64,000 nucleotides of DNA from Gaiellales bacterium (lineage in GTDB: Bacteria > Actinomycetota > Thermoleophilia > Gaiellales > Gaiellaceae). Positions 15,644-21,049 of this stretch are shown piece after piece. Numbering within the stretch: the first letter of the stretch is position 1; each line of letters opens with the position of its first letter. The DNA lies in contig JBBRZN010000007.1 of the NCBI GenBank assembly GCA_038236705.1, positions 8,741-72,740 of the forward strand, written 5' to 3'. The notes below the pieces were generated by a model. That model made no database searches. It was not told where the DNA came from and saw only the letters and a program-made list of their open reading frames with translations. The translations under genes were made by a program, and so were the position numbers.

Positions 15644-16384
15644 GTGCACCGGGATGACGACGGCTACTTCGACGAGCGCGTCGCGGCCAGATACGACGAG
15701 TCCTCCGCGGAGATGTTCGACCCGGAGGTCGTCGACCCGGTCGTCGACCTCCTCGTCGAGCTAGCCGGCAGCGGGCGCGCGCTCGAGCTGGGGATCGGCA
15801 CCGGCCGGATCGCGCTACCGCTTGGGCAGCGCGGAGTGCCGGTGCACGGGATCGAGTTGTCGAAGGCGATGGTCGCGAAGCTGCGCGCGAAGCCGGGCGG
15901 CGAAGAGATCGGCGTGACGATCGGCGACTTCGCGACGACGTCCGTGGACGGGACGTTCTCCGTCGCGTACCTGGTCTTCAACACGATCATGAACCTGACG
16001 ACGCAGGAGGCGCAGGTCGCCTGCTTCCGCAACGTTGCGGCGCACCTCGAGCCCGGCGGCCGCTTCGTCGTCGAGGTCGGCGTGCCCGACCTCCGGCGCC
16101 TCCCGCCGGGCGAGACCTTCCGCGCCTTCCACGTGAGCGAGCGCAGGTGGGGGATCGACGAATACGACGTCGCTGCCCAGGGCCTCACCTCCCACCACTT
16201 CCGGATCGTCGACGGAGAAGCCGACCGTGTCTCGGTTCCCTTCCGGTACGCGTGGCCGGCGGAGCTCGACCTGATGGCGCAGCTCGCCGGGATGAAGCTG
16301 CAGGACCGCTGGAACGGCTGGAAACGGGGGCCGTTCACGAGCGACAGCCGCAAGCACGTCTCGGTCTGGGAGAAGCCGTCATGA
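15644..16384 (+). CDS. class I SAM-dependent methyltransferase
   Basis: SAM motif I at ALELGIGTGRIALPL. 246 aa, GTG start. Confidence 0.85.
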   Translation: MHRDDDGYFDERVAARYDESSAEMFDPEVVDPVVDLLVELAGSGRALELGIGTGRIALPLGQRGVPVHGIELSKAMVAKLRAKPGGEEIGVTIGDFATTSVDGTFSVAYLVFNTIMNLTTQEAQVACFRNVAAHLEPGGRFVVEVGVPDLRRLPPGETFRAFHVSERRWGIDEYDVAAQGLTSHHFRIVDGEADRVSVPFRYAWPAELDLMAQLAGMKLQDRWNGWKRGPFTSDSRKHVSVWEKPS

Positions 16385-16389
16385 CGGGG

Positions 16390-18852
16390 TCAATCGAGTG
16401 ATTCGAGGGCGAGCGTGACGGCCTCGTCGATCGTCAGCGCCCGGCCTTGCTCCCATGCTTCGGCCAAGGCGCTTTCGTCGAGCCAGGCGCGGATCTCGGA
16501 GAGCGTTTGCTCGTTCATCCTCGCGACCCAGGCCTCGCTGACGCCGATCTGCTCTCGCTGAGCCTCGAAGCAGAAGAGAAGCCGGGCGGCCGTATCAGCT
16601 TTCCCGGGGAGCACGGCGAAAATACTGGCGCTGCGACAGAGACTTTGCGCGATTTCGTGAAGAGAGCCGAGGTCGCGACAGGCGAGAAGGTTCTGCTTCC
16701 CAAGCGCGAGGGCGTCCTCGATCCGGCCCTGCTCGAAGGCGATCATCGCCAGCGAACCCAGCGTCCCCGCCTCCGTCTCCTTGAAGCCGAGTGCTTGCGC
16801 CTGAGCAAGGTTCGATTCGTGCAGTATGCGGGCGCGCTCGAGGTCGCCACGGCTGTGGTAGGTGAAGGCGAGCGTACGCGTCGCCGAGACCGCCTCACGC
16901 TCGTCGCCGGCCTTGCGGAAGAGGGCGAGGCTCTCCTCGGCGAGCTGCTCCGCCTGCTCGACGTCTCCTTCCTCGATGGCGGCCACGCAGAGCACGTTGA
17001 GATTGAAAGCGGCGCCTCGCGCGTCGCCAAGGCGGCGATGCAGCTCCAGTGCCTGCCCCGCGATCGACCTGGCCGACGGAACGTCTCCGCTCCCGTACGC
17101 CATGAGGGCTGCTCCGGTGAGAGCCCTGGCACGCGCTGCTGTCGGGCGCTCCTGGCCTCGGAGCGCGCTCTCTAGACGACGTCTCCCTTCGGCGACGTGC
17201 CCCCCCTCGTGCCAGAACTCCGACAGGACTCCTGCGAGTTGCAGGACAAGCTCGTTCTCCCCTGAGGCTGCGAGGTGATCGAGCGCTGCGCGGAGGTTGT
17301 CGTGCTCGGCCTCCAGCCGCCCGATCCATTCGACGGAGTACGCGCGTGTATTGGGCTCGGCTTCTTCGCCGAGCGCAAGGAAGTGTTCCGCGTGACGGCG
17401 CTTCAACGTCTCGGCCTCGCCGGAGTCCTCGAGCCGCTCGGCGGCGTATTCGCGGATCGTCTCCAGCATCCAGAAGCGGTCGCCCTCGCGGACGCGAACC
17501 AGACTCTTGTCGACAAGCGACTCGAGCGTGTCGAGATCTGCGTCGCAGACCGCTTCCGCCGATTCGAGCGTACAGCCGCCCGCGAAGACGGCGAGGCGCG
17601 CGAAGAGCCCTTGCTCGTCCTCGTTCAGCAGCTCGTGGCTCCACTCGATCATCGCGCGCAGCGTCTGCTGGCGCGGGTCGACGCCGCGGCCGGCCTTGAG
17701 CAGATCCAGCCGTTGCGAGAGCCGCTCGACGAGCTGCTCGGGCGAGAGGACTCGGACCCGCGCCGCCGCCAGCTCGAGCGCGAGCGGCAGGTTCTCGAGC
17801 CGCGCGCAGAGCTCCGGCACCATGGTGCTTGCGACGAAGCCCGGCAGGGTTGCACGCGCCCGGTCCACGAAGAGCTCCGTCCCATCCTCCGGCTCGAGCG
17901 GCGGGACCGGATAGGCCTGCTCGCCGGGAACCCGAAGCAGCTCGCGGCTCGTCACGAGTAGATGGACGTTGGGGCAGGAGCCGAGCAGCTCGGAGAGGCG
18001 GGGGGCTGCCTCGACGACGTGCTCGAAGTTGTCCAATAGAAGGAGCAGCGATTTGTCGGCCAGGTGCTCCGCCAGACCGTCCTTGGCTCCGAGCACCTGC
18101 CCCGCCGTCGTCAGGACGAGCTCGGGGTCGCGCAGCGGCGCCAGCGGTACCCAGAAGATCCCGTCGGGGTAGCGCTCGGCAACCTCGGCGGCCGCCTGCA
18201 GCCCGAGCCGCGTCTTGCCCGTCCCGCCCGGCCCCGTGAAAGTGAGCAAGCGAGCGTGCTCCAGCAACCCGCACACCTCGGCGAGCTCGTGCTCGCGACC
18301 GAGGAACGGCGTCGCCGGAATCGGCAGGTTCGTTCGGTAGAGACTCTTCAGCGGCGGGAACTCCTCGTCGCCGAGCTGGTAGATCCGCTCGGGCGCGGAC
18401 AGGTCCTTCAGCCGGTGCTCACCGAGGTCCCGCAGCCCGTCGGTGTCGAGGAGAGCGGCCGTCGAGGCCGAGATCAGCACTTGTCCTCCATGGCCGGCGG
18501 CGGCGATCCGAGCGGCACGGTGGACGTCGACCCCGACATAGCCTTCCTCGGCCAGGTGGGGGGTACCGGTGTGAAGGCCCATTCTGACCCGGATCGGGCC
18601 GTGGCTGAGTCCTTGGAGCGCCTGAGCGGCCGCCCGCAACGCACCCGGCGCGGTCGGAAAGGCGACGAAGAAGGCGTCGCCCTGGGTGTCGACCTCGACG
18701 CCGCCCTGGGCGCCGAACGCCTCCCGGAGGACACGGCGATGCTCGCCGAGCGCCTCGCCGTACGACTCGGCGCCGAGTTCGTGCAAGAGCTTGGTCGAGC
18801 CCTGCACGTCGGTGAAGAGGAAGGTGACGGTTCCGGCGGGGAGGTCGCGCAT
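16390..18852 (-). CDS. adenylate/guanylate cyclase domain - STAND/AAA ATPase - TPR protein (paralogue 1)
   Basis: Class III cyclase motifs FLFTDVQGST, TQGDAFFVAF and VDVHRAARI. Walker A at GPGGTGKTRL and a TPR-like helical C-terminus. No LuxR HTH is visible. Confidence 0.88.
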   Translation of the reverse strand: MRDLPAGTVTFLFTDVQGSTKLLHELGAESYGEALGEHRRVLREAFGAQGGVEVDTQGDAFFVAFPTAPGALRAAAQALQGLSHGPIRVRMGLHTGTPHLAEEGYVGVDVHRAARIAAAGHGGQVLISASTAALLDTDGLRDLGEHRLKDLSAPERIYQLGDEEFPPLKSLYRTNLPIPATPFLGREHELAEVCGLLEHARLLTFTGPGGTGKTRLGLQAAAEVAERYPDGIFWVPLAPLRDPELVLTTAGQVLGAKDGLAEHLADKSLLLLLDNFEHVVEAAPRLSELLGSCPNVHLLVTSRELLRVPGEQAYPVPPLEPEDGTELFVDRARATLPGFVASTMVPELCARLENLPLALELAAARVRVLSPEQLVERLSQRLDLLKAGRGVDPRQQTLRAMIEWSHELLNEDEQGLFARLAVFAGGCTLESAEAVCDADLDTLESLVDKSLVRVREGDRFWMLETIREYAAERLEDSGEAETLKRRHAEHFLALGEEAEPNTRAYSVEWIGRLEAEHDNLRAALDHLAASGENELVLQLAGVLSEFWHEGGHVAEGRRRLESALRGQERPTAARARALTGAALMAYGSGDVPSARSIAGQALELHRRLGDARGAAFNLNVLCVAAIEEGDVEQAEQLAEESLALFRKAGDEREAVSATRTLAFTYHSRGDLERARILHESNLAQAQALGFKETEAGTLGSLAMIAFEQGRIEDALALGKQNLLACRDLGSLHEIAQSLCRSASIFAVLPGKADTAARLLFCFEAQREQIGVSEAWVARMNEQTLSEIRAWLDESALAEAWEQGRALTIDEAVTLALESLD

Positions 18853-18881
18853 CCGCTCAATGATGAGAGGGGTGGCCGCCT

Positions 18882-18979
18882 TCGTCCAGCGAACTAGGCC
18901 CAGCTTCAGACAGACACATCAGGCAGGGCCGGGCTAAGACTTCCACTCCGAGCCCGTCCCCGCCGTGTTCGCTGGACGA
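18882..18979 (-). promoter_or_regulatory. 13-bp perfect inverted repeat (TCGTCCAGCGAAC / GTTCGCTGGACGA) enclosing 72 nt, between mini-ORF stop and cyclase-STAND start
   Basis: Read directly: arms at 18882-18894 and 18967-18979. The arm at 18967-18979 abuts the TAG of the 21-codon ORF. Confidence 0.4.
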
Positions 18980-19045
18980 CTAGAGGAGCCAGATAAGCAG
19001 CAGAATGATGATGATTACCGCGAGAACGCCACCACCGATGTACAT
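18980..19045 (-). CDS. 21-aa hydrophobic mini-protein MYIGGGVLAVIIIILLLIWLL
   Basis: The ATG at 19045 is preceded by AAAGGAGG with 6-nt spacing, the strongest SD in the region. The peptide is a single TM-like helix. It lies 128 nt upstream of, and co-directional with, gene 16390..18852. Confidence 0.4.
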   Translation of the reverse strand: MYIGGGVLAVIIIILLLIWLL

Positions 19046-20078
19046 CCGCAACCTCCTTTCGGTGCCGATTCCGGCGAATACCCGCTCGAATCGAAAACCG
19101 AACGTCTTGTGGATAGGAAATCTCCTCCATAAAGGGGTATCGAAGTGGATGTGCTCGCCTCCGAGACGATTTGGCGAGCAGGGTGAGAAGAAGGCCCGGC
19201 GCGGGCGCAGGCCCAAGGCCGCCGGCTAGCGAAACCAAGCGAGAACTGTTTCGATGGTGGGCCCGTTCGCAACAATAGGAAGGCCGGGTGGTTTTCTCTC
19301 TCTCCCCTGGGTGGTTTTGCCGCCACCTAGCTCCAGAGGCGGCCACCCGGCCTCTCCTGAATAGATGCCGCCTCGGAGCGCAACTTGCAGTCTCCAGTCG
19401 CTGCCTCCCGCGAGCCCCTTGTCACCCGCGCCCTCACGGGCACAGTCGGAGCCGCCCCAGTTCAGCAAGAGTCAGCCGCGACGGCAGAAGAGCCCACCTT
19501 CGCTAGCACAGCAAGTCACTGACGTAATTGCGGCTGGTCCTTTGCTAGCCTTGTCGAGCCGGGCCGCCCTCGGTGCTCTTCCTCTCCCCGGATGCTCTCC
19601 CGAGTTTTCGAGGTCGCAGCTTTGGAGACCCACGGCGGCTCGGCTTCTTACTGGGTCGAGGCAGCGGCCGGGCCTCTGAGGTCCACGCACGAGCGTCACC
19701 GGTTTGACTGACTAGTCAATCGGGGAAGTCGTCCAGCGTGAGCGGGGTTGGGGGAGGCCGCTCCAAGCGGCCCCAACTGCGGTGCCGCCCGGCGTGTTGC
19801 CGCAGACACGCTGGGTGGGCGGGGCCGCCCTAGGCGTTGGTTCGGCTCGCCCGCCCGGACGGTCGGTCTGCGAACTCGGTTAGCGGGAGCCCCTAATGCC
19901 ATTCGGTCGCTCTGCCGACAATGGTCATGAGTCGGGGCACCGGCATCGTCCCTCCCCGCCGGGGCGGGGCGTCGGCTAGCCGCAGACCTAGGCGCCCCCC
20001 GCCCCGGCTCTCTCCCTTTGCTCGTCCGGGGAAGGTGAGATGATCCCCTCTTCTGCGGCAACAAGAAAGGATCGGCCC

Positions 20079-20384
20079 ATGAATGGGATCCGACTGCTCC
20101 TCGCGGCCGTCGCTGCGCTCGCGCTACCGGCCGTCGCTGTAGCTGGCGCGACACCTGTCCCACAGCAGTTCTGCCAAGTTCAGTTCGTGGCGAGCGGCCC
20201 GTTGTATGACGGGGTTGGCATCACCGTCCGAACGCCGCGTGGCTCCAGCATGATCGTCTGCCGGGTAAAGGTGCCCCCGCCGCCGGAGACGATCCTGATC
20301 ACCTTCCCCGGCGCGAACGGGGACGTCGTCGTCGTCACGCGGAGCGGCACGGCAATCGCGGTTTTTCACTCATCGTTCAGGTAG
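20079..20384 (+). CDS. small secreted hypothetical protein
   Basis: MNGIRLLLAAVAALALPAVAVAGA is a signal peptide. AAAGGA lies 8 nt upstream of the ATG at 20079. 101 aa with two Cys. Confidence 0.5.
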   Translation: MNGIRLLLAAVAALALPAVAVAGATPVPQQFCQVQFVASGPLYDGVGITVRTPRGSSMIVCRVKVPPPPETILITFPGANGDVVVVTRSGTAIAVFHSSFR

Positions 20385-20467
20385 CTCGGCGTGAAGATTT
20401 CAGCTGGCAGCGGGAAGAGAGCCCGGTAACGGCGCTTCTCTTTTGCCCAAACCGCTGATTGAAGGGA

Positions 20468-20540
20468 AGCCGACGCGCGGATTCGAACCGCGGACCCCTT
20501 CATTACGAGTGAAGTGCTCTACCAACTGAGCTACGTCGGC
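20468..20540 (-). tRNA. tRNA-Thr (anticodon CGT)
   Basis: The reverse complement GCCGACGTAGCTCAGTTGGTAGAGCACTTCACTCGTAATGAAGGGGTCCGCGGTTCGAATCCGCGCGTCGGCT folds as a cloverleaf with a 7-bp acceptor stem, anticodon loop CTCGTAA and T-loop GGTTCGAATCC. CCA is not encoded. Confidence 0.93.
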
Positions 20541-20590
20541 GTGGGTCGGCGCAGTCTAGCGCGGCCCCGCGGCGCTTAGACTGCCGCCTG

Positions 20591-20959
20591 ATGCTCCGTC
20601 TCGTCGTCGCCTGGGCGATCAACGCGGCCGCGCTCTGGCTCGCCGACGCGCTCTTCGAGAGCGTTCGGATCGACGGCTGGAAGGCCTACCTGATCGGCGC
20701 CGCGGTGCTCGGGATCGCCAACGGGATCATCAAGCCGGTGCTCATGTTCCTGACCTTCCCGCTGATCGTGCTCACGCTCGGCGTGTTCATGCTCGTGATC
20801 AACATCGCGATGCTGGCGCTGGCCGAGTGGATCGCGCCCAACTTCGCGATCACCGGCTTCTGGAGCTACGTGGGCACCGTCGTGATCATCTGGCTCGTCA
20901 ACTGGGTCGCCCAAACGGCGCTCGACGCGCTCGAGAGCCCGCGCACGCGACTCGCCTAA
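20591..20959 (+). CDS. phage holin family IV / DUF360 membrane protein
   Basis: 122 aa with 4 TM segments and the motifs GAAVLGIANGIIKPVLMFLTFPLIVLTLGVFMLVINIAML. Confidence 0.75.
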   Translation: MLRLVVAWAINAAALWLADALFESVRIDGWKAYLIGAAVLGIANGIIKPVLMFLTFPLIVLTLGVFMLVINIAMLALAEWIAPNFAITGFWSYVGTVVIIWLVNWVAQTALDALESPRTRLA

Positions 20960-20977
20960 CGCACGCGACTCGCCTAA
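20942..20977 (+). repeat. perfect 18-bp tandem duplication CGCACGCGACTCGCCTAA x2
   Basis: Units at 20942-20959 and 20960-20977. The first unit is the last 18 nt, including the stop, of the holin-family gene. The second ends in the TAA that flanks the IS. Confidence 0.9.
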
Positions 20978-21049
20978 GAACTCATTTCTGAATTAAGGGA
21001 CCCGCCTGCTAGCGACGAAGCCATTGGCATCCGTCGTCAAGCTAAGGGG

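Follow-up and report, generated by a model that had tools for sequence, protein, structure and literature searches.

A 21-codon reading frame beside a cyclase-STAND gene of a Gaiellales bacterium belongs to a conserved, unannotated family of putative membrane micro-proteins

The window analyzed here is a 64,000-nt stretch of a Gaiellales bacterium (assembly GCA_038236705.1, contig JBBRZN010000007.1, positions 8,741 to 72,740, forward strand), and our subject is a 21-codon open reading frame (ORF) on its minus strand, which we call the mini-ORF. The mini-ORF sits in an 840-nt gap otherwise devoid of credible protein-coding genes, and is present in one copy in the window's genome, a 2.37-Mb assembly with 69% GC. 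It runs from an ATG at 19045-19043 to a TAG stop at 18982-18980, reading AAAGGAGG-TTGCGG-ATG TAC ATC GGT GGT GGC ... CTC CTC TAG on the minus strand. None of the 21 residues of the peptide has a charged side chain, and the codons include runs of Ile and Leu. An inverted repeat begins directly after the stop, and beyond it lies a cyclase-STAND gene. In the order in which they are met on the minus strand, the features of the locus are the following.

19078..19103, minus strand: candidate sigmaB/sigmaF-type promoter, GTTC-N16-GGGTAT, with its -10 hexamer at 19083-19078, 32 nt before the ATG of the mini-ORF.
19052..19059, minus strand: Shine-Dalgarno (SD) site AAAGGAGG, 6 nt 5' of the mini-ORF ATG.
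18980..19045, minus strand: coding sequence of the mini-ORF, putative 21-residue membrane micro-protein MYIGGGVLAVIIIILLLIWLL of the MYIGGG family (peptide read directly, assignment from family conservation).
18967..18979, minus strand: 5' arm of a 13-bp perfect inverted repeat, TCGTCCAGCGAAC, from the first base after the stop; unique in the genome and absent in the closest relative.
18922..18964, minus strand: inner GC-rich hairpin with no U-tract, from RNA folding, likely a terminator or 3' stabilizer of the mini-gene; a partly homologous hairpin occurs in the closest relative.
18882..18894, minus strand: 3' arm of the 13-bp perfect inverted repeat, GTTCGCTGGACGA; unique in the genome and within a segment missing from the closest relative.
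16390..18852, minus strand: cyclase-STAND-TPR gene with Guanylate_cyc, AAA_16/NACHT-like, and TPR domains; no SD.

Most of this arrangement had been described in a first-pass annotation made from the sequence alone, and it is there as described: the 21-codon ORF at 19045-18980 with an SD 6 nt before its ATG, the 13-bp perfect repeat that abuts the stop with its arms 72 nt apart, and the end of that repeat 29 nt before the ATG (18852) of the SD-less ORF 16390..18852. One structural claim stands only in part. The SD and the ATG had been placed in the loop of a CACCGA/UCGGUG hairpin, and the two hexamers do exist, but their pairing falls outside both the minimum free energy (MFE) fold and the centroid fold. 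The 5' region of the mini-ORF folds no better than shuffles (z = +0.54), and complementarity of this kind around the SD and ATG is no commoner in 146 family members than in shuffled controls.

Judged by its conservation, the mini-ORF is a genuine gene of a conserved, unannotated family of 21-25-residue proteins, which we call the MYIGGG family. The closest relative, a genome of the same genus that we denote G007, encodes an identical peptide behind the same SD, with 3 substitutions that are all synonymous. When 301 genomes of the window's order are searched with tblastn, 58 genomes in 22 of 57 genera have matches, none with an internal stop. All 27 recovered loci have an ATG start, exactly 21 codons, and a GGAGG-type SD, and their consensus is MYIGGG[VL][LI]x[LAV]I..LL.W[LI][LF]. 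DNA identity among these 27 relatives is 79% in the ORF, compared with 28-30%, which is the random level, in the 60 nt on each side. Most substitutions either are synonymous or swap Ile, Leu, and Val for one another, and the third position of Gly codons 4-6 varies freely. Across the order-level loci, the proportion of nonsynonymous differences (pN) is 0.136 and that of synonymous differences (pS) is 0.446, thus the peptide is under purifying selection. The conservation of the ORF in relatives, which the first-pass annotation had left to tblastn and hidden Markov model (HMM) searches, is seen in the peptide: it is kept and the flanking DNA is not.

The family extends well beyond the order. We scanned one genome per species for 185,579 species with a degenerate DNA pattern, ATG TAY ATH GGN GGN GGN followed by NTN codons, in which a stop is not required. 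The pattern matched at least 120 public genome contigs, and the number expected by chance is well below 0.01 by a rough back-of-envelope estimate. All of the 123 matches listed end at 21-25 codons (82 at 21, 6 at 22, 11 at 23, 23 at 24, and 1 at 25), and an SD is present in most of them. A further 17 matches come from IMG/VR contigs, all 17 again ending at 21-25 codons, and an HMM search adds divergent members that begin MYISGG... and MVYGGG.... The pattern common to the family is MYIGGG, then a hydrophobic helix, with an aromatic residue (W, Y, or F) usually at position 19 and a C-terminal RR in some lineages. Variants longer than 21 residues, mostly found outside Gaiellaceae, end in R, RR, RRV, RRA, or GRI. 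Upstream, the sole conserved feature in 96 distinct 21-codon loci is a purine-rich GGAGG-like block at -6 to -13, and before the ATG the frame stays open for anything between 0 and 649 codons, without any extension that is conserved. The suspicion that the mini-ORF is truly translated is strongly supported by this conservation of a peptide across phyla.

The MYIGGG family is common in Gaiellaceae and sporadic in other Actinomycetota, Chloroflexota, Planctomycetota, and Proteobacteria. Among the matches listed, the named hosts are, for the actinobacteria, Gaiellaceae, other Thermoleophilia, Acidimicrobiia, Mycobacteriales, and Frankiales; for Chloroflexota, Dehalococcoidia, Tepidiformales, and Thermomicrobiales; and in addition Planctomycetota and Alpha- and Gammaproteobacteria, with the isolates Acidiphilium sp. 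C61 and Paraglaciecola sp. 25GB23A, whose variants have 24-25 residues, among the proteobacterial hosts. About 19% of the order carries the gene; the counts are 2 among about 41 genomes of the window's genus, 6 among 401 sampled phylum-wide, and 2 among 201 from a gammaproteobacterial order. Plasmids gave no tblastn match, a negative that is probably due to the low-complexity filter and has no weight in either direction. Some genomes carry 2-3 family copies. In the window's genus, the mini-gene occupies a variable stretch 3' of tRNA-Thr, an integration hot spot. The patchy spread, the multi-copy state, and the tRNA-Thr location fit horizontal transfer.

Structure is found after the stop of the mini-ORF. 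The 13-bp stem is predicted to form and to close the inner hairpin, with an MFE of -60.9 kcal/mol (z = -2.39, 1 of 200 shuffles as stable), and in the whole 64-kb window just 4 non-palindromic inverted repeats reach 13 bp or more with a spacing of at most 120 nt. Folding after the stop is also a property of the family. In the 140 loci with enough flank, 41% of the 70-nt segments that follow the stop fold at -30 kcal/mol or below, compared with 11-14% in the controls (upstream segments or shuffles), with Wilcoxon p-values of 1e-6 and 3e-13. The hairpin, as modeled, is most likely the mini-gene's own terminator or 3' stabilizer, and the 13-bp outer stem is a local, strain-specific extension of this terminal hairpin.

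As for the start of transcription, the GTTC-N16-GGGTAT motif also occurs in G007, again 32 nt before the ATG. A motif of the form G[TG]TT-N12-16-[GT]GG[AT]A[ATC], in the sense direction, is found upstream of 18 of the 101 21-codon loci, versus 0.45 in shuffles and 0 downstream. The motif in the window resembles the SigF consensus of M. smegmatis, GTTT-N14-19-GGGTA (PMC4694148), and the SigB consensus, GTTTAA-N12-14-GGG(A/T)A(A/T) (PMC8346170), a similarity that we treat as a lead only. For 21 syntenic loci in Gaiellaceae, the conserved upstream blocks are only the start of a divergent gene, GTTTC-N16-TGGAAT, and the SD. An alphaproteobacterial EcfG-type motif, GGAAC-N15-18-CGTT, is not enriched upstream.

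Several arrangements at these and other family loci are worth recording. The same 21 Gaiellaceae loci (L006, L011, L015, L016, L031, L042, L044, and others) have back-to-back sigmaB/F-like promoters 30-110 nt upstream of the mini-ORF: GTTT-N15-16-GGGTAC points toward a divergent basic protein of about 111 residues (MPPRGVKKGTKRARQYEHIK...), and GTTTC-N16-TGGAAT points toward the mini-ORF, on which a GAF-SpoIIE-HATPase_c_2 (RsbU/RsbW-like) gene converges, overlapping its 3' end in some loci. Gammaproteobacterial variants have, by eye, a conserved upstream region GGTAGCGC..GACG/TGnTTnAAT. Gammaproteobacterial variants at L046, L052, L054, L077, L082, L084, L116, L120, L129, L139, L144, L146, and L150 share a conserved block GC-GGTAGCGCnCnGACG-N15-20-TGnTTnAAT about 40-90 nt upstream of the ORF, which has the look of an extended -10 promoter that is regulated through an operator. 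In Planctomycetota, the variants L063, L087, and L152 have sigma54-like TGGCAC-N5-TTGC sites, also seen by eye. Finally, the IMG/VR copies L190, L195, L200, L201, L202, and L205 have no SD, and a TANNNT hexamer (TAGCGT or TAGGGT) ends 6 nt before their ATG, which suggests leaderless mRNAs in that lineage.

The 129 nearest downstream neighbors of family members fall into 81 Pfam families, of which a cyclase appears once, at the window's own locus. The largest group is the convergent GAF-SpoIIE-HATPase_c_2 gene, at 20 loci from one Gaiellaceae clade. The strand of the downstream neighbor is random, the same as that of the mini-ORF in 69 loci and opposite in 66. An all-against-all BLAST of the neighbors of 147 loci finds no neighbor conserved across clades, only clade-specific synteny.

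The reading that we favor, to which we give a rough probability of 60%, is that the mini-ORF is a gene of its own, that its product is a single-pass membrane micro-protein of 21 residues from an unannotated family spread over several phyla, and that this product is more plausibly a modulator or proteolipid than a toxin. The mini-gene would be transcribed alone, in this genome maybe from the sigmaB/sigmaF-like site 32 nt upstream of the ATG; the consensus SD would drive efficient translation, and the hairpin after the stop would end transcription or stabilize the mRNA. The peptide would insert in the cytoplasmic membrane as one helix, with Tyr2 and the aromatic residue 19 at the two membrane interfaces, separated by 17 residues (about 25 Angstrom). 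The RR at the end of the longer variants would place the N-terminus outside and the C-terminus inside. In the membrane, the peptide may act as a small, possibly stress-induced, embedded modulator or proteolipid. We think this role the most likely, and likelier than that of a killer toxin, by comparison with small stand-alone membrane proteins such as AcrZ and MgtS and with the DUF3309 proteins, whose second half the peptide resembles.

A number of observations weigh against this interpretation. There is no conserved partner gene to anchor a function, and the patchy spread together with the multi-copy genomes would also fit a selfish or toxin-like gene. The sigmaB/F-like motif matches come mostly from one syntenic clade, in which the -10 reads TGGAAT instead of GGGAAT, and the 9 sigma-70-family matches in the window's genome are all below the SigBFG cut-off. 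The window's genome is a metagenome-assembled genome. The likeness to DUF3309 concerns a compositionally biased transmembrane segment and stays below the family threshold. As to novelty, exact peptides from several phyla, 18 of 18, are absent from a collection of 15 billion proteins, which is weak evidence because the minimum protein length of that collection is unknown.

A more ambitious version of the favored reading would make MYIGGG a new class of membrane micro-proteins of 21-25 residues that move horizontally between phyla, a single-repeat counterpart of DUF3309 expressed from lineage-specific condition promoters. The promoters would be sigmaB/F-like in Gaiellaceae, sigma54-like in Planctomycetota, and of the GGTAGCGC...GACG/TGnTTnAAT kind in Gammaproteobacteria. 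We regard this extension as speculative and rather unlikely. If it were true, it would suggest a general membrane-stress function performed by one of the shortest conserved bacterial proteins known.

Among the alternatives, the one that survives best is a type I toxin-like or otherwise membrane-damaging peptide, which on synthesis would depolarize or permeabilize the membrane. A small RNA, antisense or encoded close by, would restrain it, and the gene would be passed on horizontally as a module of the addictive or defence type. In size and in its extreme hydrophobicity, the peptide resembles Ibs/Sho-type toxins, as far as sequence and general knowledge go. The patchy cross-phylum spread that suggests horizontal transfer, the 2-3 copies in some genomes, the place of the gene in the tRNA-Thr hot spot of the window's genus, and the 17 copies on IMG/VR contigs all point the same way. 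Several observations speak against it. Neither the locus (z = +0.54) nor the family at large has a structure that sequesters the SD, and the 21 syntenic loci have no conserved non-coding block beyond the promoter region and the SD. Some variants appear leaderless, which would leave no 5' untranslated region for control. In classical type I loci with several copies, the repeated unit is the entire module with its non-coding parts; in the tandem pair at L071, only the ORF is similar. Type I toxin families are narrow, and conservation of a peptide across phyla would be unusual for them, but here it is the peptide itself (MYIGGG, aromatic residue 19) that is conserved. The synteny, moreover, is stable in two clades, over 21 species-level genomes of the one and about 19 of the other. 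On balance, we consider a toxin unlikely.

Much less survives of the idea that the mini-ORF is a regulatory upstream ORF or leader that controls read-through into the STAND gene or its translation, or a branched-chain amino-acid attenuator. The geometry is attractive: a strong SD, a short ORF, a stem that starts at the first base after the stop, 29 nt, and then a STAND start with no SD. A ribosome terminating at the stop would sit over the stem's 5' arm. The STAND start region itself lies outside the stem. The window and G007 are collinear at 87-92% identity, and G007 is without window positions 16379-18978 (G007:C3 40021-40103). This strain-specific 2.6-kb segment starts directly after the stop of the mini-gene and holds both the STAND gene and the leader that carries the 13-bp repeat. 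What follows the mini-ORF in G007 is a stretch of 81 nt with a hairpin and then a convergent methyltransferase gene, which corresponds to window 15644..16384. The same peptide exists in G007 with neither STAND gene nor stem, and the association of mini-ORF and STAND gene is unique to the window's genome.

The wider family agrees. The sole cyclase among the 129 downstream neighbors is the window's own, and about half of the neighbors are convergent, so that in those loci there is nothing downstream to regulate. The coupling of mini-ORF translation to expression of the STAND sensor, which the first-pass annotation had offered as an alternative, is accordingly rejected: G007 has the peptide without the sensor, one neighbor in 129 is a cyclase, and the orientation is random. 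Selection acts on the amino-acid sequence and not merely on codon content. Six further contigs (C1, C5, C8, C31, C40, and C58) carry cyclase-STAND paralogues, found by blastn with a DNA identity of 65-70%, and their leaders have nothing in common with the leader here. For the attenuator, the runs of Ile and Leu codons are suggestive, but branched-chain amino-acid genes are not enriched among the neighbors, and we rejected it since the neighbors are unrelated to the pathway and often convergent. As a general function, a leader role is largely refuted, and we hold it to be very improbable. Mini-ORF, stem, and STAND gene are adjacent only by recent rearrangement, so their arrangement is uninformative on how STAND genes are regulated. 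As an observation on the genus, the STAND gene with its leader is a 2.6-kb presence/absence polymorphism between two genomes.

The weakest explanation, that the mini-ORF arose by chance in GC-rich intergenic DNA and that the repeat is a small mobile hairpin element (miniature inverted-repeat transposable element, MITE), can draw on the abundance of spurious ORFs in GC-rich genomes and on a 13-bp repeat that begins right after the TAG, but is hardly credible given that the conservation of the ORF is overwhelming, that the arms and the sequence they enclose are single-copy (neither the 13-mer arms nor the 127-nt spacer has a further copy in the 2.37-Mb assembly, for which the MITE was rejected), that no target-site duplication is visible at the locus, and that the inner hairpin is partly common to G007 and hence older than the 13-bp repeat.

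Gene callers usually skip proteins under 30 residues. With an invariant N-terminal motif, a fixed length, purifying selection, and a presence in at least 4 phyla, the MYIGGG family is a testable addition to the few conserved bacterial micro-proteins, and for annotation an uncomplicated HMM or pattern would suffice to find the gene in many metagenome-assembled genomes, most of them from soil. On the STAND side, the lesson is one of caution: the adjacency of mini-ORF, stem, and sensor is no guide to STAND regulation in general.

Some further features of the family loci can be noted. The tRNA-Thr gene is at window 20468-20540, with counterparts at G007:C3 33319-33394 and 37025-37070, and G007 carries a 3.6-kb insert at this tRNA that the window does not have. 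Many genomes of the genus have extra copies of the 3' part of tRNA-Thr (about 46 nt) at distances between a few kb and tens of kb from the intact gene, and in genome G017 this part is repeated up to four times; such repeated 3' parts are a signature of serial element integration at this tRNA. Of 123 loci, 25 have a tRNA gene at most 1 kb from the mini-ORF, and in 19 of these it is a divergent tRNA-Cys about 80 nt upstream; loci in the tRNA-adjacent set include L018, L021-L025, L029, L033, L038, L041, L057, L060, L061, L017, L036, L083, L105, and L133. At L083 there are two copies with the same peptide and different codons, one on each side of a tRNA-Leu.

Upstream of the mini-ORF, window positions of about 19137-19229 on the plus strand are, in comparison with locus L002 (1227-1430), what is left of a 67-residue gene, of which G007 has an intact copy. 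The intact G007 protein (MARKSIIVSDISGREIRDEK...RGRKPKAAS) has no Pfam match, and in the window a deletion of about 115 nt removes the 5' half and the start codon of its gene. A large hairpin at window 19282-19352, GGCCGGGTGG...CCACCCGGCC, is almost invariant with respect to G007, in surrounding DNA that is about 88% identical; it has no Rfam match and is probably the terminator of the 67-residue gene. In window positions 17500-21000 as a whole, Rfam finds nothing except the tRNA. Elsewhere, about 10 loci of mixed taxa (including L010, L026, L067, L090, L115, L122, and L131) have, directly downstream of the mini-ORF and convergent with it, a gene for a small membrane protein with two helices and about 90-100 residues (MGISLSILLVAIGAILTWAV...), and COX2 (ctaC) comes next after the mini-ORF in 5 loci.

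How does the family compare with what is known? Pfam, NCBIfam, and PHROGs hold no above-threshold family for MYIGGG peptides, PHROGs giving only noise, and we found no match for a MYIGGG-type motif in the literature. Ibs, ShoB, and similar toxins have 19-26 residues, are almost wholly hydrophobic, and are intergenic with a strong SD. The mini-ORF shares with them the small hydrophobic peptide, the predicted membrane location, the intergenic position, and the strong SD, without detectable sequence similarity; in the loci compared, no antisense RNA was found. Small stand-alone membrane proteins that modulate larger ones, such as AcrZ, MgtS, and proteolipids of the KdpF type, consist of a single transmembrane helix, have their own ribosome-binding site, are often remote from the partner gene, and are often stress-induced. 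Here too sequence similarity is lacking, and most of these proteins are longer than the MYIGGG peptides.

A layout of Gly-Gly, hydrophobic helix, and basic tail is common to the MYIGGG peptides and to the sorting domains GG_III-CTERM (NF041738), GlyGly-CTERM (TIGR03501), and PVV-CTERM (NF051874). MYIGGG peptides score 12-16 bits on GG_III-CTERM, and one variant scores 15.7 bits on GlyGly-CTERM; apart from one borderline GlyGly-CTERM match, the scores are below the cut-offs. The Gly-Gly CTERM domains are tails of large secreted proteins and are recognized by a sorting enzyme, whereas the MYIGGG segment is the whole protein from its start Met. The candidate that it is the C-terminal sorting domain of a larger protein was ruled out by that Met start with its SD and by the absence of any conserved upstream extension.

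The closest known family is DUF3309 (Pfam PF11752), uncharacterized membrane proteins of bacteria that have two hydrophobic segments in about 50 residues, in contrast with the 21-25 residues and single helix of MYIGGG. The window's own peptide, of the 21-residue actinobacterial form, gives no DUF3309 match in a profile search. Long variants score 13.5-20.2 bits, the best of them 19-20 on profile positions 28-50 of 50, with a cut-off of 22.3. Comparing the family with the second half of DUF3309 using hhalign gives a probability of 74% and E = 2.9e-5, over 22 columns of compositionally biased transmembrane segment. We found no function for DUF3309 in the literature, thus the link adds no mechanism. 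Genomes with long MYIGGG variants also hold separate, true DUF3309 genes at 70-80 bits. The second half of DUF3309, with the consensus ...GYxPSGG[LV]GL[IV]L[IV]...LLxGR[IL], has its motifs in the same order as the MYIGGG peptides, namely Tyr, Gly-Gly, hydrophobic helix, and basic end, and the alphaproteobacterial MYIGGG variants end in GRI, as does DUF3309. Going by these sequence features, the MYIGGG family is possibly a half-size relative of DUF3309, and as such it offers a handle on that family.

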